From a virus (Duplodnaviria > Heunggongvirae > Uroviricota > Caudoviricetes): a stretch of 34,518 nucleotides of DNA. The notes below the pieces were generated by a model. The model ran no database searches and was not told the DNA's origin. It saw only the letters and a program-made list of their open reading frames with translations. The position numbers were made by a program, and so were the translations under genes. The stretch is taken from the IMG/VR virus record IMGVR_UViG_3300029653_000081, positions 1 to 34,518 of that record; one strand, written 5' to 3'. Within the stretch, counting starts at the first letter, position 1. Each line of letters starts with the position of its first letter. Of this stretch, positions 12,731 to 31,381 are shown in pieces.

Positions 12731-13588
12731 TTCTGGGAGTTTCAGCTTTGGATTGCGAGAATGGACGATTACAAAACTTTCCCGGCCTTTCTTCTCAATT
12801 GAACAGTCGAGATAGCCGATTGTTTTAAGCTGTTCTATCGCTTTCTTAATGATACGGTTTTGCTCGCCAACAGCTGACTGCAAAGCCAGGCGCTCACGGA
12901 TTCGGGCGAAAGATAGCGGCAACGGATTCTGCGGAAGGCTTTCGATGAAAGTGTAAATGGCTTGTGCAGCTTCTTTCTTCGGAAGGGCACGCAAGGCGTG
13001 GTGTTGCAACAGAACGCGATAATCAAGCTGGAACAGCTCCCACAGCTTCGAATCAGCCTCCAGCTCTATCAGATCAAGGTCAGCATCAAAACGACCGACC
13101 TTTAGCAGACCAGTCTGATAGCCGCCTTTAGCATCTTTTCCGCGCTTAAAAGCGATACCCTTGTTACGTAAGCGTCCAAGTGATTCATGAATGGTTAAAC
13201 GCAGTTTCGCATCCAGACGTTTTGAGGGGAAACCACAGGCTTTAGCGAATTCCTGAAACGATAACTGGATGGTGTTTGAGGACAAGCCGTATTTGCTGAA
13301 CGCGTAGATGACACCGATCCACGTTTTGAAATCAGTATCCATATCGAGTCGAGGACCGGTGATTTTAATATCATCGTAACCCTCGGCTTTAGCTATCTCC
13401 AGCTGGGAAAACGCTTTGGTGGCATCAATCTCTTTACTTTCTCCTTTGCTCTTTGATGGCTTCGGAACGAATACCCCCAAGCGCATCAATGCTACAGGCT
13501 GGACAGTGTTGTTTGAATTAACTGTTAGTTCTTTTGCCTTACTTTCAATGTCTGCGTAAAGAATATCGGAGATAAATGATTGATTCAT
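12728..13588 (-). CDS. repA: Plasmid replication initiator RepA (286 aa)
   Basis: Flanked by iteron arrays on both sides and followed by parA-parB, the P1 plasmid replicon arrangement. Confidence 0.9.
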   Translation of the reverse strand: MNQSFISDILYADIESKAKELTVNSNNTVQPVALMRLGVFVPKPSKSKGESKEIDATKAFSQLEIAKAEGYDDIKITGPRLDMDTDFKTWIGVIYAFSKYGLSSNTIQLSFQEFAKACGFPSKRLDAKLRLTIHESLGRLRNKGIAFKRGKDAKGGYQTGLLKVGRFDADLDLIELEADSKLWELFQLDYRVLLQHHALRALPKKEAAQAIYTFIESLPQNPLPLSFARIRERLALQSAVGEQNRIIKKAIEQLKTIGYLDCSIEKKGRESFVIVHSRNPKLKLPE

Positions 13589-13599
13589 ATTACTTTTTC

Positions 13600-13870
13600 C
13601 GAATTGTGTGGATAGTTTTTATAAGTGGTGATAACTACCCAGGCTTTCCCGTCAGCACACATCCTATATCCCGCCAGCACACATTAGCAACCCGTCAGCA
13701 CACATTTTTATCCCTCCAGCACACATCGTTTTCCCTCCAGCACACATCGCGATACACTTCTAAGCCAGACGTGGCGCGGCCTGCAACGATCAGGGATCTA
13801 TATGGATCTAATTGGGATCTGTATGGACCTAATTATTGGATCTACCCAGTGGATAATGTGGATAAGTGAA
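13600..13870. other. oriR: Plasmid origin (oriR-like) including incC iterons
   Basis: Five inverted iterons (13645-13748, ...cagcacacat...); five heptamer repeats (G/T)GGATCT at 13793-13843, four with GATC; DnaA-box-like sequences tgtggatag (13607-13615) and agtggataa/tgtggataa (13848-13866). Confidence 0.85.
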
Positions 13871-13905
13871 AAACCGGCCAACATAGCCGGTTGGAAGGAA
13901 GGGTA

Positions 13906-14298
13906 TTATTCTACGCTTTCGATAAGAAGACCATGTTCATAGCATTTAAGCTCATCGCCTTCATACAGGAACTGGTATCCAATACCACCATATTCAGGCA
14001 CATTAGGGAATAACTCATCACTTACCGAAGAACAAATCACACCAATGCAGCGATCAACGCCTTCTCGTTCTTCAGTGCTGAAAAAATCCTCTTCGGTAAG
14101 AACATGAGTGCATTGCTCATCAGCATAGGTCGGAAATACATGCTCGATGCAATCCGGGTGTTTTAAACCAAGCTGATCGGCAAGCTCGAAAGCATGACGG
14201 TATTGTTCAGATCCTGGCTTGCCAACAGTGATTTGCTCAATTTTGTAGATTGAAGTCGCTTTGTTGATAGTTTGCTTTACTGTTACTTTATCAGACAT
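13906..14298 (-). CDS. Hypothetical protein (130 aa)
   Basis: ORF with coding-like composition next to the origin; no motif recognised. Confidence 0.35.
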   Translation of the reverse strand: MSDKVTVKQTINKATSIYKIEQITVGKPGSEQYRHAFELADQLGLKHPDCIEHVFPTYADEQCTHVLTEEDFFSTEEREGVDRCIGVICSSVSDELFPNVPEYGGIGYQFLYEGDELKCYEHGLLIESVE

Positions 14299-14309
14299 AA
14301 AAATCCCTT

Positions 14310-14642
14310 TTAGTTACCACTGATAGCGTGGTTGTAATCATTAACGTTGCGATTCTTCCTGTTAATCCCCATCAGCATCGTTTCTGTATCAAGGATATAG
14401 GCTGGCAGATCATCAAAATATTCACTGCTAAACTCTGGCATCCTGCACATAAACGCACTTTTGGGGGCAGGGTGATTAACCTTTGTCGGCGTCGGCGTTA
14501 AATTCGCTGATCGACTCCCGGAGCAACCGCTGAGTGTCAACAGGAATGCGCTGGCGAACACTACCCGACGCAACCAGTTGTTTCTGAACTTCAGCTTTTC
14601 GTTCCATTTGCCTGTCAGCATATTTGGCTTGTTCTGATTCAT
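14310..14642 (-). CDS. Outer-membrane lipoprotein, possible o-spanin (Rz1-like)
   Basis: Basic n-region KLKFRNNWLRR, hydrophobic VVFASAFLLTL, lipobox LSGC, then proline-rich PTPTKVNHPAPK. Its 5' part is embedded out of frame in the upstream gene. Confidence 0.5.
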   Translation of the reverse strand: MNQNKPNMLTGKWNEKLKFRNNWLRRVVFASAFLLTLSGCSGSRSANLTPTPTKVNHPAPKSAFMCRMPEFSSEYFDDLPAYILDTETMLMGINRKNRNVNDYNHAISGN

Positions 14643-14898
14643 TTTTCACTTCCTGGCTGTGAAAATGTTGCTCTGCTTTGTTCATCGTCTCAATGGTCTG
14701 GTTAAGATCCATTATTGACTTATCACGTTCCTTAACAGCCTGATCAAGACTGCCAATTTTCTCCATGGCTTGCTTTAGCTGATGACGTTCCCATGCAAAC
14801 CCAGCACCAACAAGTGCGCAAATCAGAACAAGAACACCAGTAGCAGCAAGTTTCTCCTTCAAAGACAAAGCTGTTTTTAACGTAGAAAAGAATGACAT
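14476..14898 (-). CDS. N-terminally anchored coiled-coil protein, possible i-spanin (Rz-like)
   Basis: ATG at 14898 preceded by AGGAGG; single TM segment TGVLVLICALVGAGFAW then a charged helical region. Overlaps the lipoprotein gene as in Rz/Rz1 pairs. Confidence 0.5.
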   Translation of the reverse strand: MSFFSTLKTALSLKEKLAATGVLVLICALVGAGFAWERHQLKQAMEKIGSLDQAVKERDKSIMDLNQTIETMNKAEQHFHSQEVKNESEQAKYADRQMERKAEVQKQLVASGSVRQRIPVDTQRLLRESISEFNADADKG

Positions 14899-14937
14899 GT
14901 CTTCCTCCTGAAGAAAAATTATCAATGAAGTCCTTTG

Positions 14938-15726
14938 TTACTGTGCCGCTTTGTTTAATTCATCAAGAACAGAATCAGGAACCAAAGCGGCAACTGCGCT
15001 GGCTGTGCTGGCCTTATTTGCTGATGCTTCCGCAAGCGCGGTACCGATAGCATGGTTATAAGCAGTTATGGCTACGTTGGCGCTTTCATTCGCTCGTTCA
15101 TACTGCTGTTGTAACGCAGTTGTGGGCGCTGTTGTCTGGTTGAAAACAACCCCAAACTGTTCAGTTGCTACTTTCAGAGATTCAATTTGCTCTTCTGTTA
15201 GTGCTGGTGGGGGAGTGGCAGTGCCGCCGCCTGAACCAGAGCCTGACGAGCTTCCTGAGCCAGTGTTAAGGGTCTGGTTAATCTCCCCCATAGCAGCAAC
15301 TAAACTTGATGTATTAAGCGCGTTTACAGCGTCCTCAAGCGATTTAGTAATAGTCACATCACCAATGGCAATAGAGATCGGCAGTTCTGAAACTTCTCGC
15401 TCATTAGCACGGCAGTAAACATCCCAACCAATATCGAGTTGAAGCAGCATTGACAGATCTGCATAACCAGCCAACAGGTCCGCGTGCTTAGTTGCCAGTT
15501 CGACAATGTTCGTTAAGCCTGTTGTGGTTGTTCTGATCGTTGAAACATAACTGGTAATAGTGTCGGGATAGACAATTGTATCCAAAATTAATCCGATCAA
15601 TTCTTCTGCAAGCTGTTTTGCCGTGTTAGCACTGTTTCGTGCCGATGTTATGGCACCAAGTGTTTTCATCCCACCGGCTGCGGCCAATTTTTTATATGCG
15701 GATAACTGGTAGTCTTTTTCCAGCAT
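14938..15726 (-). CDS. Two-domain protein joined by a Gly/Ser-rich linker (about 262 aa), function unknown
   Basis: ATG at 15726 with AGGAG SD (tracked ORF extends to 15783); linker GSGSSSGSGSGGGTATPPP. Confidence 0.4.
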   Translation of the reverse strand: MLEKDYQLSAYKKLAAAGGMKTLGAITSARNSANTAKQLAEELIGLILDTIVYPDTITSYVSTIRTTTTGLTNIVELATKHADLLAGYADLSMLLQLDIGWDVYCRANEREVSELPISIAIGDVTITKSLEDAVNALNTSSLVAAMGEINQTLNTGSGSSSGSGSGGGTATPPPALTEEQIESLKVATEQFGVVFNQTTAPTTALQQQYERANESANVAITAYNHAIGTALAEASANKASTASAVAALVPDSVLDELNKAAQ

Positions 15727-15734
15727 GATATCTC

Positions 15735-16019
15735 CTAACTTACCTGAACTAGGCCGTCTCCGGACGCTACGGTAGATCCGCATGAAACAGGGTCACCAAC
15801 GCATACGATCCCTTTACCATTGACGGTAAACCATGCCCTGGTTGATATAGCTTGCCCACCGTGCGTACTGTTTCCATCGGTATGCTGTGCATATTGCTTA
15901 CCATCAACTAACACTTCGACTCCGTTGACTTTAAGTAGTGGTTCACTCTCTACAGGAGGCCTGGATGGGAATCCTCCGTGCCCCGAACAAATGCTGTCTT
16001 TTGTTGCAATACTTGCCAC
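15735..16019 (-). CDS. PAAR-like small protein (94 aa), possible tail spike tip
   Basis: GTG start; CSGHGG, THGG and VNGKGIVCVGDPVSCGS motifs resemble PAAR repeats. Confidence 0.45.
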   Translation of the reverse strand: MASIATKDSICSGHGGFPSRPPVESEPLLKVNGVEVLVDGKQYAQHTDGNSTHGGQAISTRAWFTVNGKGIVCVGDPVSCGSTVASGDGLVQVS

Positions 16020-16100
16020 GTCGTCACCAATGATTTGCTCTGATTTTCGTTATTTTAACTTAGGTTATTTGTGGTCTGTATGGCGTTTACTTATTACAAA

Positions 16101-16117
16101 ATTGCTCTAATAAATAT
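16101..16117 (+). promoter_or_regulatory. C1 repressor operator upstream of the uhr-rdgC-dmt operon
   Basis: ATTGCTCTAATAAATAT (16 of 17); TTGCTC -35-like with TTATAT/TATATC about 16-17 nt downstream. Confidence 0.8.
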
Positions 16118-16188
16118 TGTTTTTTATATCGTGTTTTCGGTACCATTCAGCCATCGCCCTTCAATGGGCATTTGTTTGGAGTCGTCAG

Positions 16189-16473
16189 ATGCAGATGGAG
16201 CTAATAAGCCGCAAGGAGTTCGATAGCCGTGTAACCAGCGGTGAACTCGACAACTTGCAGGCTATCAAGGTGAAAGAAGGCTTTTGCCTCATTGGGAATC
16301 AGAGCGGAACAAATCGCGTTTTTATGCTTCGCCGTACGGATTTGAAGCCATTTGTCTGGAAGAACGAAATTGGTCCCAGCTCATACGCTCAAACGAGGGG
16401 GTGCCACAACTTGGCCTTTTTCTACAAAGACGAGCTTTCTGTGGTTGATATTCAAGGGTTACAACATGTTTAA
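16189..16473 (+). CDS. Small protein upstream of rdgC (uhr-like, 94 aa)
   Basis: ATG at 16189 with GGAG 8 nt upstream; overlaps the rdgC start by 8 nt. Confidence 0.45.
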
Positions 16474-17371
16474 GCACTGGAAAAATATTACTATTTATAA
16501 ACTTTCTCGTGAGGCGGATCTGACCGACTTAGAAGATAAAAAGAAAATGATCCTTTTCACGCCATGCGGTAGTCAGGATATGGCCAAGTTCGGTTTTGTA
16601 TCGCCATTTGGTGATAATTCCGAAGTTATCGCTATGCATGGAAATGGTTTTATCCTTGTTGAAGCAAAGCGCGAAACAAAAATTCTTCCCCCGCCGGTTA
16701 TCCAGCGAGCTATTCAAGAAAAAATTGAAAAACTTGAGCAAGAACAAGCGCGTAAACTGAAGAAAACAGAGAAGGACTCCCTGAAAGACGAAGTTCTGCA
16801 TTCTCTTCTGCCACGGGCTTTTTCAAAGTTTTCTGTTATCCAGGCGATCTACGACGGTTCAACTAAACGTATCTATATCAATGCCAGCGCGCGGCAGGCA
16901 GAGGATATGCTCGCGCTTATGCGTAAGTCTCTGGGTTCTCTTCCTGTTGTGCCACTAAGTGTTGAAAATCCCATTGAGTTAACGCTGACCGACTGGGTAC
17001 GTGATGCTAGTGCTCCACAGGGATTTCAAATGGGGGATGCGGCAGAACTTAAGGCAGTGCTTGAGGATGGCGGTATCGCCCGAGTGAAAAAGCAGGATTT
17101 GGGAAGCGATGAAATTTCCACACACCTGGAAGCTGGCAAGCTCGTCACTAAGTTGGCACTCGACTGGCAGAACCGCATTAAATTTACACTGGACCATAAC
17201 TTCAGCATTACCAGCGTCAATTTTGCGGATGAATTGCTTGAGCAGAACTCTGATATTGATAGTGAAGATGTTGCGCAGCGACTGGACGCAGATTTCTTCC
17301 TATTGACCAGTGAAATTTCGTGCCTGGTTGATGCTCTGGTAAATGCCCTTGGTGGAGAGGCTAAGCAGTGA
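16466..17371 (+). CDS. rdgC: RdgC-family recombination-associated protein (P1 hrdC-like)
   Basis: 301 aa from [15 protein letters not shown]; [38 protein letters not shown] and GSLPVVPLS closely resemble E. coli RdgC as recalled. Confidence 0.8.
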
Positions 17372-20250
17372 AAGAGCTGTGCTATGGATCTGTTTGCAGT
17401 GGAATTGAAGCCGCGAGTATTGCCTGGGAACCGTTGGGTATGCGTCCGGTTTGGTTTGCTGAAATCGAGCCTTTTCCATCGGCCGTTCTTGCGCTCCGCT
17501 GGCCCCATGTCGCCAACCTTGGCGACATGACAAAACTTGCCAAAAAAGTCTTGGCTGGGGAAATCGAATCCCCTGACGTGCTCGTCGGGGGAACACCATG
17601 TTTTACCGCGGGGCATATGGTTCTTTGTAAAAATGGTTATAAACCAATAGAAGATGTTTGCCCTGGCGATTACGTAGTCAGTCATCTCGGGCGGTTACAA
17701 CAAGTAAAAAGAGTTGGTTCAAAAATAGCTAATACGGGGTTACTTAATGCCGTTGGGCAGCCTTTAGGTATAAGAACAACCAATGACCATCCCTTCCTGG
17801 CTGTTCGGTGGAAAGCCCAAAACACCCGGAAAAATGGCACATATTTTAAGAGAGAGTTGTTGTCTGAACCGGAATGGCGAGCAGCATGTGATATGCCGGG
17901 ATATCAATGGTGCGCTCTAACTAATTTCAATATTGCATCTCCAGATATTTGTTCTCGGTTCTTGTCTGAAGAACAGGCTATGTATCTTGCGGGCGCTTAT
18001 GTTGGCGATGGATATATTAGGAGATGGAGAGGTAAATCTAAGAAGGCGGTTGTTTTTGGCATAAATTGCCAGAAATTGAGAAAGTTTCATTGCCGCATAC
18101 CAGAAAACATATTTTCCGTGGCAAGCGAAATCCGAGGGAGCATCAAAGTAACCTTGAATGATACGTGTTATGCCAATTGGCTTAATGAACATTTTGGCGA
18201 GTTAAGCCATGCTAAGCGTATCCCTGCATGGGTGATGTCGCATCCATTGCGTCATGTGTTTTTACAAGGCTATCTTGATACTGATGGGACACCAAGTGGT
18301 AAAGCGGGATTTAGAATTAATAGTGTTAGTCCTGCGCTTGCTTGGGGCGTTGCGGGGTTGTCACAGACTTGTGGTTATGTTTCTTCGGTCAGCTTTATTG
18401 AAGTTGAGCCCAAAAAAGTGATCGAGGATCGCGTGGTAAATCAACGGAATTATTATCAGGTAACAATCTGCCCGCAGAAATTGTCACGTAAATCAAGATT
18501 GGCTCATGGAATGCTTTTACGAACAGTCAAAGAGTTTAAATCGGTAGGCCTAGATACTGTATACAACATAGAAGTCGAAGGTGATCATTCCTATATCCTC
18601 AATGGTGCGGTGGTCCATAACTGTCAGGCATTCAGTATCGCGGGATTACGTGGTGGGCTTGATGATGAGCGTGGCGCGCTAACTTTAAAGTATGTGGAGC
18701 TTGCAAATGCAATTGACGACAAACGGGCTGAGTCATTTCTCAAACCAGCCGTTATTGTCTGGGAAAATGTCCCAGGAGTCTTGTCATCGGCAGATAACGC
18801 CTTCGGATGTTTCCTTGCCGGATTGGCTGGAGAAGATGCGCCATTTGAACCAGGTGATCGACCTGAATCAGGAAAAAGTAACGCGTTCTGGCGGTGGGAT
18901 GGCAAAACCGGTTGCCATGCTCCAAAGTGGCCGCAGTGTGGTTGTATTTATGGGCCGCAGCGAAAGGTGGCCTGGAGAATCCTTGATGCCCAATACTTCG
19001 GAGTGGCACAACGACGCCGACGCGTGTTTGTTGTCGCAAGTGCTCGAACAGACCTCGATCCCGCAACGGTACTTTTTGAGTTCGAAGGCGTGCGCCGGGA
19101 TATTGCGCCGAGCAGAGGCGAGGGGAAGGAAACTACCAGATATACTTCAAACATCGCTATCAGATCTTGCGATGATACAAACATAGTTGCCATGGCACAT
19201 GGGCAAGGAGGGGCTGAGATAAAAACCGATAATTCGGCACCAACTTTAACATGTAACCATGAAGCACCAATTGTATTGCTCGGCGACGGTAGAATACGCC
19301 GTCTTACCCCTGTCGAATGTGAAAGGCTGCAAGGTTTTCCTGATGGGCATACGTTGATCCCTACGGAAAAGCGTAAAAAAGTTTCTTCAGATGAACTGGC
19401 ATACCTTCGCAATAACTATCCTGATTTAAGCGAAGAAGAGGCCGCGATGCTTGCAGCTGACGGACCGCGTTACAAAGCGATCGGCAATAGTATGGCAATA
19501 CCAGTAATGCGCTGGATTGGCGATCGGATTACTAAGGCCGTATGTCGGCAGAAAGAAGGAAGTGAAACAAAAGAGCGAAAAGTTAAACCAGCGGCAGAAT
19601 TCGAACGGTCCATATTCAAATGGGCTGGTGGAAAATTTGGTGTTCTGGAACAAATCTTTCGCTATTTGCCAGAAGGGAAGCGCCTGATTGAACCTTTCGT
19701 TGGTGGCGGAGCTGTCTTCATGAATGCCGGATACCAGGAAAATCTGCTAAATGATGTGAATGCTGACCTGATTAACTTTTACAAGACTCTGCAACGCGAG
19801 GCGCATTCACTTATCACTCTGGCACATCGTTTCTTCCAGGACTACAACACACAGGAAGGATACCTGGCAGTACGGAATGCGTTTAACAAACAAGTCTATG
19901 ATGATTTACATCGCGCAGCGGCGTTTTTGTTCCTGAACCGACATTGTTTTAACGGATTGACGCGTTACAACCAGGCCGGTGAGTTCAATGTCGGTTATCC
20001 GGACATGAGTCTCGATAAAGCATGCGGTATTTATCACGGCATGCGAATTGAGCTTAAAGAACCAAATGGTAAAGCCCCGACGAAAGAGCAGATCGCCTGG
20101 ATGCGCAGGCTTAGAGAGGAAGGTTACTACGTCGTTCTTGCGTATGGTGCAGAACAAGCGATAACCGCCATCCTGGAATACATAAGCCTTAAAAAGGGTG
20201 AGGCTATTGAGCATGTATTGAACGGCGACAAGTGGTTGTATGCCACTTAA
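17368..20250 (+). CDS. dmt: Dmt-like multidomain DNA methyltransferase: C5-cytosine MTase interrupted by an intein, then a Dam-like domain and a nuclease-like tail
   Basis: GTG start coupled to the rdgC stop. C5-MTase motifs: [13 protein letters not shown] (split), [33 protein letters not shown]. Dam-like segment FKWAGGK...[10 protein letters not shown]...[23 protein letters not shown]. No DPPY-type motif anywhere in the protein. Confidence 0.85.
17599..18621 (+). other. Intein (341 aa) with LAGLIDADG homing-endonuclease motifs inside dmt
   Basis: Begins Cys (CFTAGHMVL), ends VVHN, followed by Cys+1; contains [11 protein letters not shown] and [10 protein letters not shown]. Excision would join GGTP to CQAFSIAG, restoring motif IV. 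Confidence 0.8.
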
Positions 20251-25378: not shown

Positions 25379-28300
25379 CTATATTTTTCCGCCTACGCCT
25401 TTAAACTTCTCAATAAACGAGACGATTTTCTGGAAAACTGCCTGTTTTTTCGTTTTATATTGCGGATTCAACGGACTAAGTTTTGGTAATGTTTCGTTTA
25501 ATTCTGTGCCATTTTCGGTGGCGTATTCGCGTTTTAAAGACGTGCGAATATAGCGTTTTGCTGCATCTTCATTGAGATTTTCTTCTTTTATCAATGCTTC
25601 TGCTTCACGTTGCTGTTCGCGTTGAGCAAACGTAAAGAATGCCTCAATGATACTGGCTTTGTCTGGTAAATCATCCAGGTTCGTTTGCTGAATAAAATCG
25701 ACCACCAGGCCCTCTTTCGCCCGGTTCCCCAGGCTTGAACGAATTAAGCGTTTGACCTCTTCGATCATTTCGCCCTTGCCTTTATTTTGTCTGTTGTGTT
25801 CGAAAATCAGTCCAAGGATATAATCCAGGTTTATTTCCTGAGACTTCAGCAAATCGACCTCAAAAACCACGTCATCCCAGTCAGTGGTTGATTTCTCTTT
25901 TTTCTCAGCTTCTTTCTCACGGCGCTGCCAGTCGCGAATATCGTTATAGGCAGAACGATAATCCTGAATCTTGCGATCAGCAGGGAGACGAATTGTTTGC
26001 AATTCAGCGAACTTTTCATCATCCACATAATGTTCTGCTTTGAATTTTTCTACCGCAACAGGATCGCTAAGATCGATTTGTTGCAGGGCTTTTAGCGTGG
26101 CAAATTCATCATAGTTTTGCAGGATGTTCTCGGCACGCAGGTATTCGCCAAACAGTTTAACGAAGTCTTTCTTCTCTTTTTCACTTTCAATACTGGCAGG
26201 GTCAGGGAACCGTTGTTCCAGTTCTGAAACTACTGCCATAAAGCCGCGTTTGGCTTCACCGGTGGCAGCATCAGTAAAACCTTCCATATACTCTGCATAA
26301 CTCTTTTCTAACACCACATTTTTGGTATTTTTATCACCAAACAGCGTTATGGCATCAATGGTTGAGCGTTCCAGATCCCGAAAAGTGACAATGTTACCGA
26401 AGGTTTTAGTGGCGTTATAAATGCGGTTGGTGCGGGAAAATGCCTGCATCAGGCCGTGAAAACGCAAGTTTTTATCGACGAATAGCGTGTTCAATGTTGG
26501 AGCGTCGAAGCCGGTTAAAAACATCCCAACGACAATTAACAGATCGATATCCTGATTTTTAACCCGTTGGGCTAAATCGCGATAGTAGTTCTGAAAACCG
26601 TTACCGTCGGTGCTGAAGTTAGTTTTAAAATAGCTGTTATACTCACGAATTGCAGCGTCAAGAAACTCTTTAGCACTGCTGTCCATTGCGCTGGTATCAA
26701 AAGTTTCATCGGAAATTTCACCAATGGCATTTTGTTCTTCATTAGCGGCAAAGGAGAAGATTGTCGCAACACGCAGCGGTTTATAAGTTGCAGATTTATT
26801 AGCGGCTTCCTCTTGTAACCGTTTAAACGCCGCGTAATAGGCTTTTGCAGCATCCACGCTGCTCACTGCCAACATAGCATTAAAACCTTTTGCGCCAGGG
26901 AAAGTACGGTGCGTCTTCTGGCGGAAGTTATTCAGAATATATTGCGTAATTTCCTGTATACGCATGGGATGAAGAAACGCCTGCTGATTTTCAGCCGCAC
27001 TTAGTTTTTTCTCGTCAGTTTCTGTCTCTAAAGACTTAAACTGTGGCCGCACATCGTTGTAGTCCACCTTGAATTTGAGCACTTTTTCATCACGAATCGC
27101 ATCGGTAATTACATACGAATGCAATTCACGACCAAATACGCTGGCGGTCGTTTCTGAGCCTAAGGCGTTTTCCGGGAAAATAGGTGTGCCGGTAAAACCA
27201 AACTGATAATAGCGTTTGAATTTCTTCTTCAGGTTTTTCTGCGCTTCTCCAAACTGGCTGCGGTGGCATTCATCAAATATAAACACCACTTGCTGATTAT
27301 ATACAGGCAGGTCGCTTTCTGCTTTCATCAGGTTATTGAGTTTCTGAATAGTAGTGACGATAATTTTGTTATCGTCCTTATCCAGATTTCGTTTAAGGCC
27401 TGCGGTATTTTCCGAGCCGTTGACGCTGTCTGGCGAAAAACGCTGATATTCCTTCATGGTCTGGTAATCGAGGTCTTTCCTGTCGACCACAAAGAAGACT
27501 TTATCAATAAAGTCCAGCTCTGTTGCCAGACGCGCGGCTTTAAAGCTGGTGAGGGTTTTACCAGAACCGGTAGTGTGCCAGATATACCCACCGCTTTCCG
27601 GTTTTGACCAGTTCTTCGCTGTAAAGGAACTCTTAATTTTCCACAGAATGCGCTCGGTGGCGGCAATCTGGTACGGTCGCATCACCAGTAGCGTCTGACT
27701 ACTGTCAAAAACGCTGTAGTTCACCAGAACATTCAGCAGAGTATGTTTCTGGAAAAAGGTAGCGGTAAAGTCTTTGAGGTCTTTAATCAGCGTGTTGTCT
27801 GATTTCGCCCAATTCATGGTGAAGTCAAAACTGTTTTTATCGCGCTTTGTCGTGTTGGCAAAATAACGGGTATCGGTGCCGTTAGAAATGACAAACAGTT
27901 GCAGATACTTAAACAGGGAATTTTCGCTGTTAAAACTCTCTTTACTGTAACGATGTATCTGGTTGAAAGCCTCACGAATCGCCACCCCGCGTTTTTTTAG
28001 TTCGATTTGCACCAGCGGTAAACCATTAACCAGGATCGTGACGTCATAACGGTTAGCATGAGAACCCGTCTGTTCAAACTGCTGGATAATCTGCACCTTA
28101 TTGCGCATGAGATTCTTTTTATCTATCAAATAGATGTTCTCAAGTCGCCCGTCATCAAAAATAAAGTCGCAGATATAGTCGATATGGATTTTACGGGTTT
28201 TATCCAGAATACCATCGCTGGGGTTGTCCAGATACTGCTCCGTGAAGCGCCGCCACTCGCTGTCATTAAACATCACACCATTGAGGCTCTGAAGCTGTTC

Positions 28301-28495
28301 CCGAACATTGGACAGCATTGCCGACTGTGATTTTACGGAAATAAATTCATAACCCTGATTTTGCAGGTCCTGAATCAGTTCACGTTCCAGGTCCGATTCG
28401 CTCTGGTAGCTGTCGCCTGTTGGCTCAGCTTTGATGTACTTATCAAGAACGATAAAGTTATTGGATTCAGCAATGGTGTGTGTCTGATGAGTCAT
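25379..28495 (-). CDS. hsdR: Type I restriction enzyme R subunit HsdR (1038 aa)
   Basis: Helicase motifs TTGSGKT and [10 protein letters not shown]; size and position after hsdM-hsdS. Confidence 0.9.
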
Positions 28496-28616
28496 AGCGC
28501 ATCCTTTGTGCCGTCTGGCAAGGGCCGGAAGGGGGGTAATGGTGACTTCCGGCGCGTAAAAAATAGTCTATATACTGACCGGGTGTTAAGGTGGTCCGAT
28601 CGGTAGCAATGATCAA

Positions 28617-29822
28617 TTAATTACTGGCAGTTTCAGGTTTCGGGAAACTGAACAGTAAATCACGGTAGTATTCGTATTGTTTCTGGCGCAACTCGATTTC
28701 ACGCGGAAGACCTTCGGTGATGGAAGCTGCGATTGCATCAAACTTATCCAGAATATCCACAATACGCCCCTGTTCGTCTAAAGATTTTTGAGGGTGAGAT
28801 GGGTATGGAATAGGTACTCTGACTTGTTTCAGTGCATTAGCATTAAACTGTGGTTGCCCACCACCAGATACTAATTTATTAGCCTGTTCCCAAAAAAAAT
28901 CACTTTGTGCAAAGTGCCAGTAATATTTGGCATTAATAATCGTTTTATTTAGGTTCAACTTTATTAAAAAACCAGCGTATACTGCTGGATAATCTTCTTC
29001 AAAAATCATTGTTTTACCAAAGGTTGCCCCAGTTCTTGCCATGAGTAAATCATTTTTGTCTAAGGTATATTTCTCATTTTCCTCATTTAATTCAACGTAC
29101 ATTGGGTTTTCTTTCGATAGCTTCCCGTCTTTATTTATGTCAGTAATTCTCACGAAACGGGCATCTCCTGAATCCATGGCTTTGGCTGCATATCCATATG
29201 TAAAATCTCCAATTTCCCCCAAAGTCTTCCACTCAACCTCACCATCTTTAAAACTCAACAACTGGTCGCGATAGTAGTTGTACTGTTTTTTACGCATGTT
29301 AAGCTCAGCGGTAAGCTCAGCGGTAAGTGCAGTAAATTTATCCAGAATCCGAACGATTTCAGACTGGATGGCAAGGGATTTTTCCGGATTATCCGGGCAG
29401 GGGATGGGGATAGGGAAATTCTCTAAGGTTGATAGCACGATATATGTCATTGCCGCGCTATTTGTTCTTTCCTCGAGATATTTCTTCAGGCTATGGCTAA
29501 GCACAAAATACAAAAATCTAACACTTACATTTTCGTCGAAATTTGTCAGAACATAGGTGCGCTGATAAGCCTCAAACTTGCCGATGTAATGCTTCACCTC
29601 ACCAACATTCGCATTGCCTGCAATCAGCAATGCCTCTGTATCCCAGCGGAATTTATCAATTTTGCTTGTCTCTTTGGCTGTCGTGAAGAACATATACTCT
29701 CCATCATCAACAGCCGCATTCGCATTAAGCTTTCCTGTTTCAATTTTGCAAGTTTGCCCAAGTGTCTTCCACTCAACCTCAACCCCATCCAGCAATTTTT
29801 CCAGATAACTCATCTCGCTCAT
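28617..29822 (-). CDS. hsdS: Type I specificity subunit HsdS (401 aa)
   Basis: Two target-recognition halves each ending in a conserved repeat ([19 protein letters not shown] and [19 protein letters not shown]); 4-nt overlap with hsdM. Confidence 0.85.
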
Positions 29823-31381
29823 TTCTGCACCTCGCAGCCTTCAATTTCAGCCACAATTGCATCAATATCTTTACGCAACTGGTCGATTTTGCTGACCGTG
29901 GTTTTCAGCTCTGCATTCAGCTCACCGATATCGATAATTTCGCGGTTATCTTTCGCTTCCACATAGCTGCTCACCGACAGGTTATAGTCATTCGCGACAA
30001 CAGTCTCAAACGCAACAGATTTCGCCAGATGAGCAACATCTTCCTTGCTGGCAAATACCTGCATAATCTGTTCGATATGGGCATCGGTCAGGATATTGTT
30101 GTTGGTTTCTTTTTTGAACAGTTCGCTGGCATCAATAAACTGAACTTTGGTATCCGTTTTATGTTTAGACAGCACCAGAATGTTTACAGCAATAGTGGTG
30201 CCAAAGAACAGGTTCGGTGCCAGTGAAATCACGGTTTCGACATAGTTATTATCGACCAGATACTGACGGATTTTCTGCTCCGCGCCGCCACGGTAAAAAA
30301 TACCCGGGAAGCAGACAATCGCAGCACGACCTTTGGCCGAAAGATAGTTCAGCGCATGTAGTACAAACGCAAAGTCAGCTTTGGATTTGGGGGCCAGGAC
30401 GCCAGCCGGGGCAAAACGTTCATCGTTAATCAGCGTCGGGTCATCGCTGCCAATCCATTTCACCGAATACGGCGGGTTAGAAACGATGGCATCAAACGGT
30501 TTTTCATCTCTGAAGTGTGGCTCAGTCAGTGTATTACCCAGCTTGATATCAAACTTGTCGTAGTTGATGTTGTGCAAAAACATGTTCATACGTGCCAGGT
30601 TATAGGTTGTATGGTTGATTTCCTGACCAAAAAAGCCTTCTTCGATGATATGGTTATCAAACTGCTTTTTAGCCTGCAACAACAGTGAGCCGGAACCCGC
30701 TGCCGGGTCGTAGATTTTGTTAACGTTGGTCTGCCCGTGCATAGCCAGTTGTGCAATCAGCTTGGAGACGTGCTGCGGTGTAAAGAACTCACCGCCTGAC
30801 TTACCGGCATTTGCCGCATAGTTAGAAATCAGGAACTCATAGGCATCACCGAACAGGTCAATCTGATGTTCGTTGAAGTCACCAAGTTTTAACCCTTCAA
30901 CCCCTTTCAGAACCGCAGCCAGGCGGGCATTTTTATCTTTAACGGTGTTACCCAGGCGGTTACTGGTGGTATCGAAATCAGCAAACAAACCTTTGATGTC
31001 TGCTTCTGAAGGGTAGCCGTAAGCAGAACTTTCGATAGCAACGAAGATGCTGTTTAAATCTGCGTTCAGTCTGTCATTGGTATTTGCTTTCGCAGCTACG
31101 TTGCAGAAAAGCTGACTGGGGTAGATGAAGTAGCCTTTAGTTTTGATGGCATCGTCTTTAATGTCATCAGTAATTACGCTGTCATCCAGTTTCGCATAAC
31201 AGATACTGTCATCACCGGCTTCAATATAACTGGAAAAATTTTCGCTGATAAAACGGTAGAAAAGTGCGCCCAGAACGTATTGCTTAAAATCCCATCCATC
31301 GACCGAACCCCTGACATCGTTAGCAATTTGCCAGATTTGACGATGAAGCTCTGCACGTTGTTGAATACTTGTCATTTTCAT
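29819..31381 (-). CDS. hsdM: Type I N6-adenine methyltransferase HsdM (520 aa)
   Basis: NPPY motif ([10 protein letters not shown]) and AdoMet-binding [11 protein letters not shown]. Confidence 0.9.

Follow-up and report, generated by a model that had tools for sequence, protein, structure and literature searches.

What are a tail spike protein and an apparent pair of lysis proteins doing beside a plasmid origin of replication? The question is raised by five minus-strand genes at positions 13906 to 16019 of the window, meaning the whole 34,518-nucleotide (nt) stretch of DNA analyzed here (IMG/VR record IMGVR_UViG_3300029653_000081), whose sequence is that of a P1-type phage-plasmid. An earlier note on this DNA had singled out a PAAR-like protein, a linker-joined two-domain protein, and an overlapping gene pair resembling Rz/Rz1, and had proposed that these were mis-assigned lysis or spike components, or else parts of a different envelope-targeting function. 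The locus is in our judgment (with a probability of about 85%) a P1 transcription unit, upfC-upfB-ppfA-mlp-upfA, that combines two known functions, the tip of the tail spike and the spanins of lysis, with one accessory gene. The region has already been described, and the observation that drew attention to it was real but ordinary.

Five genes between dmt and the P1 plasmid origin

Over window bases 13500 to 16500, DNA identity is 100% with OP279344, a record of Escherichia phage P1, and 96.3% with reference P1 (AF234172/NC_005856), and the same stretch is common to many P1-like phage-plasmids of Escherichia coli and Salmonella. The coordinates match exactly five annotated genes of reference P1, in the minus-strand order upfC, upfB, ppfA, mlp, upfA, which establishes the identity of each gene. 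The features described in the earlier note are all present at its coordinates, in five co-oriented open reading frames (ORFs); it had dealt with four of the genes, and the fifth, upfA, also lies in the region. The five are bounded by the divergent C1-controlled dmt promoter and by the plasmid origin oriR/repA. Gene set, order, spacing, and overlap are all shared with reference P1, to whose proteins those of the window are 98.9% (UpfC), 90.1% (UpfB), 97.1% (PpfA), 96.4% (Mlp), and 99.2% (UpfA) identical. The names are not new, since the 2004 P1 genome annotation is said to have included all five.

Shine-Dalgarno-like sequences precede all five start codons, the intergenic spacers are short (8 nt between upfC and upfB, 39 nt between upfB and ppfA, and 11 nt between mlp and upfA), and an intrinsic-terminator-like hairpin lies 3' of upfA on the minus strand, just before oriR (13872-13892; a 9-pair stem with 5 G-C pairs, then TTTCACTTAT). 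From these signals, the five genes would seem to form a single transcription unit, transcribed together from upfC to upfA. Ratios of nonsynonymous to synonymous divergence (dN/dS) from reference P1 are 0.02 for upfC, 0.24 for upfB, 0.05 for mlp outside its overlap with ppfA, and 0.04 for upfA, and within the overlap both reading frames stay open in relatives whose proteins are down to 28 to 51% identical. The low ratios and the two open frames indicate real genes rather than chance ORFs.

The timing of expression is less direct to read. The reference P1 record carries two predicted sigma-70 promoters (P1ppfA and P2ppfA) inside upfB and none upstream of upfC, where a scan for the sigma-70 consensus also found nothing. 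A search for late promoters took the annotated LP23, AAGTGACTT-N4-TAAAAT, as its template and AAGTNACTT-N4-TANNNT as its pattern. A weak candidate motif, AAATAACCT-N4-TAAAAT, lies on the minus strand at 16052-16070, its end 32 nt ahead of the upfC start; it departs from the LP23 pattern at 2 positions, goes unannotated in reference P1, and is not significant alone, the pattern having 17 matches in the window versus 8.8 expected. A distant Salmonella P1-like element (L088) has a perfect copy of the P1 late-promoter −22 box, AAGTAACTT, with a −10 element of TACACT, likewise 32 nt from the start of upfC. In that element the box and the start codon are separated by a terminator-like hairpin (CCCACAGA...TCTGTGGG, then T6; within L088 5400-5712), which makes the promoter match ambiguous. 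Late, Lpa-dependent expression of the unit is plausible given these motifs. In two P1 RNA sequencing papers, the five genes go unmentioned in the main text.

According to a genome-wide CRISPR interference (CRISPRi) screen, all five genes are dispensable for plaque formation. This fits both proposed functions, as the spike tip is dispensable in T4 and spanins are described as nonessential for lysis in shaken laboratory cultures (PMC9025707).

Small genes such as these are easily missed. The deposited annotation of OP279344.1 omits mlp and upfC (equivalent to window 14310-14642 and 15735-16019), both of whose ORFs are intact, and this gap in an automated annotation is a case in point.

The spike-tip proteins UpfC and UpfB

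The first gene of the unit, upfC (15735-16019, minus strand), has a GTG start with an upstream Shine-Dalgarno-like GGTGA and encodes a PAAR-type spike-tip protein of 94 amino acids. Its description as PAAR-like in the earlier note was accurate, and the protein is indeed the spike tip: it matches the PAAR family phrog_281 at 2e-30, and phmmer aligns it to the PDB chain 9vyi_A, itself named UpfC, with 93 of 94 residues identical (E 1.7e-60). More distant relatives were recovered by the same program, namely T4 gp5.4 (chains 5iv5_ZA and 4ku0_D, E 8.6e-8 and 1.2e-7) and a Vibrio PAAR protein (4jiv_D, E 3.7e-4). Matches to general PAAR models fall below their thresholds, marginally for the Pfam family PAAR_motif (PF05488; 26.4 bits against a gathering cut-off of 27) and also for the NCBIfam model T6SS_PAAR_dom (4.5e-9, below the model cut-off). 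UpfC carries His14, His46, and His53 together with Cys11, Cys73, and Cys80, residues predicted to be enough for a metal site of three His and one Cys as in gp5.4, and its His residues and one Cys align with the related chain 9f4b_BA.

The structure and virion position of UpfC are known from electron cryomicroscopy (cryo-EM), which shows that, in the P1 baseplate, the gp5 trimer carries one UpfC monomer at its end (PMC12810830; bioRxiv 2025.07.21.665459). Like T4 gp5.4 and the PAAR proteins of type VI secretion systems (4ku0, 5iv5, 4jiv), UpfC is a monomeric cone of about 95 amino acids that sharpens a trimeric beta-helical spike. The P1 spike differs from that of T4 in that P1 gp5 is without the lysozyme domain present in T4 gp5, and in that the P1 tip bears a tripod of UpfB whereas T4 has no tripod. 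T4 assembly proceeds without gp5.4, which contributes to fitness and to infection of deep-rough lipopolysaccharide mutants; plaque formation by a upfC deletion is normal, matching this dispensability.

The second gene, upfB (14938-15726, minus strand), encodes the linker-joined two-domain protein, an all-helical product of 262 amino acids. Its start at 15726 has a Shine-Dalgarno sequence, GGAGA, 4 nt before the ATG and overlapping the upfC stop codon. A longer ORF reaching to 15783 is without such a sequence, and the PHROG family profile begins at residue 20 of that longer product. An AlphaFold2 model built with 14 homologues (mean predicted local distance difference test score [pLDDT] 81, predicted template modeling score [pTM] 0.76) consists entirely of helices: an N-terminal helical bundle at about residues 22 to 156, a disordered linker, and long C-terminal helices at residues 178 to 261. 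The linker, a Gly/Ser stretch read directly from the sequence (GSGSSSGSGSGGG, residues 156-168; 15223-15261, minus strand), has pLDDT values below 50 at residues 158 to 169. It varies in length and is of low complexity in 14 of the 14 aligned homologues, which bears out its description as a linker-joined two-domain protein. No solved structure or BFVD model resembled UpfB at E<=1e-3.

UpfB has been described as a "novel tripod" made up of three trimers and attached to the tip of the spike, and a role in membrane piercing was speculated (PMC12810830). Its presence at the tip is established at medium resolution, and it may take part in penetration. During entry, the blunt end of the trimeric gp5 spike is capped by a single UpfC, a cone of PAAR fold with a predicted His/Cys metal site, and the UpfB trimers forming the tripod hang on the UpfC-capped tip.

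UpfB has also diverged more than the other four proteins. It carries 26 substitutions relative to reference P1, whereas its four neighbours are 96 to 99% identical; synonymous divergence is similar, with dS at about 0.2. This pattern suggests faster protein evolution in the tripod protein than in its neighbours under selection that is still purifying, and it would fit an exposed, host-contacting position. Homologues of UpfB are restricted to P1-like elements. A scan of viral contigs with UpfB returned near-identical P1-like loci only, and the distant genomic contexts described below were reached through exact-protein look-ups.

The overlapping pair PpfA and Mlp

The third gene, ppfA (14476-14898, minus strand; Shine-Dalgarno-like AGGAGG), encodes a predicted inner-membrane spanin (i-spanin) of 140 amino acids. 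Its strongest hydrophobic stretch spans residues 17 to 35 (14794-14850, minus strand) with a Kyte-Doolittle value of 2.35, and a net charge of +2 lies N-terminal of this transmembrane segment, giving a single N-terminal membrane anchor with a predicted N-in/C-out topology. The periplasmic part is 36% charged, has no proline before residue 119, and includes a Gly/Ser/Pro stretch at about residues 110 to 121. Residues 37 to 109 have a heptad hydrophobic moment of 0.65, compared with 0.32+/-0.16 for shuffled sequences, 3% of which reach that value. PpfA matches the "Rz-like spanin" family phrog_89 at 1.8e-24, and what it has in common with P2 LysB is the architecture and a C-terminal P-x-D-x-x-R motif.

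The fourth gene, mlp (14310-14642, minus strand; Shine-Dalgarno-like AGGAAG), encodes the lipoprotein precursor and predicted outer-membrane spanin (o-spanin), of 110 amino acids. Its lipobox, LSGC, occupies residues 37 to 40 (14523-14534, minus strand) and is followed by Ser at position +2. The mature form would have 71 amino acids, among them 6 prolines and one periplasmic Cys besides the lipoyl Cys. Mlp is a homologue of the P2 o-spanin LysC: BLASTP aligns them at 37% identity over 68 amino acids (E 3e-8), across the lipobox, a Pro/Thr stretch, and a conserved C-x-M-P motif. Mlp also matches the "Rz-like spanin" family phrog_30284 at 6e-76, and the weak, sub-threshold NCBIfam matches of the two proteins agree with each other, PpfA hitting LysB and Mlp hitting LysC. 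The transmembrane gene and the out-of-frame lipoprotein start reported in the earlier note were both found, as were the membrane segment and the lipobox.

The arrangement of the two genes is another matter. The note had called it the classic Rz/Rz1 layout, in which lambda Rz1 is wholly embedded in Rz, but mlp merely overlaps ppfA: it begins in the +1 frame 256 nt inside ppfA, the two genes overlap by 167 nt (14476-14642, minus strand), and the remaining 166 nt of mlp lie beyond the ppfA stop codon. This is the "overlapped" architecture, as in P2 lysB/lysC, and the P1 pair is listed as "ovl" (overlapped two-component spanin) in the curated SpaninDB. Kongari et al. enter PpfA there as P1 gp064 "OIS," with a 36-residue transmembrane-domain (TMD) region, a 104-residue periplasmic domain, and no periplasmic Cys, and Mlp as P1 gp063 "OOS," with LipoP cleavage at residue 39 and one periplasmic Cys. 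Another study named PpfA and Mlp the P1 spanin genes, with the i- and o- labels swapped in its text (PMC9025707).

P2 offers the closer parallel in other respects. LysB/LysC, like the P1 pair, consists of an i-spanin of about 140 amino acids with an N-terminal transmembrane segment and a +1-frame o-spanin that extends past its stop, and in both phages the genes are embedded among morphogenetic (in P2, tail) genes. The P2 pair directly follows the holin and endolysin genes, whereas in P1 the holin and endolysin lie in unlinked operons. Lambda Rz/Rz1, compared here through established knowledge and PMC6139136, has the same predicted topology and mechanism and the same +1 frame relationship, with two periplasmic Cys in Rz where PpfA has none.

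The sequence features of a spanin pair and the homology of Mlp to LysC are plain, and spanin activity would be expected from them. During exit, PpfA would be held in the inner membrane by its anchor and extend its helical domain into the periplasm, and Mlp would go to the outer membrane as a lipoprotein. The C-terminal parts of the two proteins are predicted to bind each other, so that the pair spans the periplasm; once the Lyz endolysin clears the peptidoglycan, the pair would complete lysis by fusing the inner membrane with the outer one. In the CRISPRi screen, the efficiency of plaquing was 0.24 for mlp and 1.3 for ppfA, and both were scored nonessential.

Module order, competing readings, and the wider window

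Why these genes appear stranded can be approached through their distant relatives. Two distant P1-like elements keep a four-gene order of PAAR protein, UpfB, transmembrane/coiled-coil protein, and +1-frame lipoprotein, with identities of 66 to 73% for UpfC, 44 to 49% for UpfB, 28 to 35% for PpfA, and 37 to 51% for Mlp. The +1 overlap of ppfA and mlp persists there (164 nt in L088 and 179 nt in L089), and relatives of Mlp keep a lipobox of LSGC or LSAC. In L087/L088, homologues of P1 genes 23, 22, and 21 of the capsid, sheath, and tube region come immediately after the module and share its strand, with no replicon in between; in P1, oriR-repA-incA-parAB-parS occupies that same position. From these two relatives we infer that the module may have belonged to an ancestral string of late morphogenetic genes, from the rest of which the P1 plasmid maintenance module would now separate it.

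Such synteny would be a simple explanation for the stranded look of the P1 spike-tip genes. The earlier note was correct that neither a holin nor an endolysin gene is adjacent, and that the PAAR-like gene is far from other tail genes; the P1 spike and hub genes for gp5 and gp6 lie about 10 kb away. Yet the lysis and morphogenesis genes of P1 are scattered over several unlinked operons (PMC9025707), and a location of spanin genes among tail genes has a precedent in P2. The proposal of mis-assigned lysis or spike components therefore held in part: the genes do encode spike and lysis components, but the cryo-EM work, SpaninDB, and the scattered operons of P1 all speak against a mis-assignment. 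UpfC, UpfB, and the PpfA/Mlp pair are already known, neither mis-assigned nor novel, and with the spike tip solved, the tripod published, and the spanin pair in a curated database, the locus carries little weight as a discovery. What is new here, as read from the compared genomes, is the retention of a PAAR-UpfB-spanin module in P1-like lineages and its placement next to capsid and sheath genes in one of them.

Several observations pull against the assignment of the locus to a single unit of spike-tip and spanin genes. No promoter is established for upfC and the sigma-70 predictions lie only inside upfB, so the five genes may not share one transcript. The gene for gp5, the partner of UpfC, is absent from the window. 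UpfB was placed at the tip by fitting an AlphaFold3 model into medium-resolution density with no de novo build (PMC12810830), and the name UpfB did not turn up when the main text of the P1 virion proteome paper was searched for it. PpfA reaches only 20 bits (6e-4) with the NCBIfam LysB model TIGR03495, far under its cut-off of 92.75, and BLASTP found no significant pairwise similarity between PpfA and P2 LysB (E 59). The signal sequence of Mlp is unusually long at 39 amino acids, for which SpaninDB gives the remark "Too long signal sequence." PpfA has zero periplasmic Cys; at least one is present in 507 of 528 two-component spanin systems (PMC6139136), and in the P1 pair it is Mlp that supplies it.

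Among the alternatives, the one that fares best, and is nonetheless unlikely, concerns upfA (13906-14298, minus strand; Shine-Dalgarno-like AAGGGA), which encodes a beta-rich protein of 130 amino acids and might be a functional part of the lysis module, for example a spanin or a lysis regulator. It starts 11 nt after mlp, and in an unrelated prophage (L090) a homologue with 50% identity lies just downstream of a lysis cassette of two holin genes, an endolysin gene, and two overlapping small ORFs. Other homologues are found beside an endonuclease gene, alone on the opposite strand in an early region, or after cro/cII-like genes, and the module of L088 and L089, conserved in its other genes, has no UpfA. 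Neither a signal peptide nor a transmembrane segment was found in UpfA, and deletion of upfA is recorded as nonessential. Given its varied neighbourhoods and its absence from the L088 and L089 module, UpfA is read as a mobile accessory gene, probably moron-like, rather than a spike or spanin component, and it would be a mobile phage gene sitting at the 3' end of the unit.

The fold of UpfA is confidently predicted and has no solved relative, and its sole family match is a PHROG of unknown function. An exhaustive profile-free search placed it in a small family of proteins of about 125 to 130 amino acids with 28 to 50% identity. A zinc-binding motif (H47/C50/H53/C84/C89) seen among close homologues was discarded, as it is not kept in the wider family. 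Two long proteins matching UpfA, the ankyrin-repeat protein P0139 and P0127, which is without informative domains, were set aside as uninformative or spurious matches.

A rather less probable reading assigns PpfA and Mlp to some other envelope system, such as superinfection exclusion, a prophage lipoprotein like lambda Bor/Cor, or a plasmid-related function. The pair has no linkage to lyz or lydA/lydB, its place beside oriR/repA could suggest a plasmid-related role, P1ppfA and P2ppfA just upstream of ppfA could permit expression outside the late program, and both genes are dispensable for plaques with their spanin function predicted from sequence features. However, Mlp is homologous to LysC, both proteins match spanin PHROGs, and the overlap of a transmembrane/coiled-coil protein with a +1-frame lipoprotein is the signature of two-component spanins, kept even in diverged relatives. 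The L088 pair adjoins late structural genes and not a replicon, and no further P1 spanin candidate has been reported (PMC9025707). No other family explains PpfA or Mlp, so homology to non-lysis families, which would have counted against a lysis role, did not appear, and neither PADLOC nor other family matches lent anything to the different envelope-targeting function raised in the earlier note.

More doubtful again is a composite account, in which the module order reflects a coupled envelope-crossing toolkit, one half of it the membrane-fusing PpfA/Mlp pair and the other the UpfB tripod, with UpfB acting on membranes like a spanin at entry, or in which PpfA/Mlp is not the lysis spanin; separately, UpfA might have a new fold and a host-directed function of its own.

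The least credible of the scored alternatives makes upfC, upfB, ppfA, and mlp one functional unit in which the pair aids the spike tip and tripod in penetration at entry or in tip assembly. It draws on the order of PAAR protein, UpfB, i-spanin, and o-spanin being kept at only 28 to 66% identity, and on the speculation that UpfB pierces membranes (PMC12810830). Linkage in a conserved late operon suffices to explain that synteny, though, and P2 lysB/lysC sit among tail genes without functional coupling. Neither PpfA nor Mlp belongs to the set of proteins recognized in the P1 cryo-EM maps (PMC12810830), and a main-text term search of the virion proteome paper found neither; their export and anchoring signals typify proteins of the cell envelope rather than of the virion. 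A defense-system role was rejected, with no PADLOC match for any of the five proteins.

Beyond the spike-tip and spanin genes, the window departs from reference P1 elsewhere. Compared with P1, about 11.1 kb is missing at a junction at 19993-19998. The lost segment comprises the 3' part of dmt, tRNAs, plp/upl, tciABC, ban, dbn, genes 5, 6, 24, 7, 25, and 26, pmgL, and the 5' part of pmgM, and no homologue of gp5, gp6, gp24, gp7, gp25, or gp26 was found in the window. At this break dmt is joined in frame to the last 85 residues of PmgM, a VRR-NUC protein, forming an ORF of 960 amino acids (17368-20250, plus strand). The junction was not found in collections of phage, plasmid, or complete E. coli genomes; either the P1-like plasmid is defective or the assembly has produced an artefact.

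Within the dmt ORF, at about 17600-18600, an intein-like insert interrupts the cytosine-methyltransferase part, as judged by eye from the translation. The insert splits the Dmt catalytic motif, giving GGTPC|FTAGH...VVHN|CQAFS, and contains a LAGLIDADG-like segment. The dmt gene is 3042 nt long in OP279344, compared with 2265 nt in reference P1.

Farther along, at 25379-31381 on the minus strand, lie three large ORFs of 1038, 401, and 520 amino acids. Megablast matched this segment to phage vB_EcoM-673R5, where it is annotated as HsdR2, restriction endonuclease subunit S, and type I M protein, and it has the look of a cargo module for type I restriction-modification, absent from reference P1.

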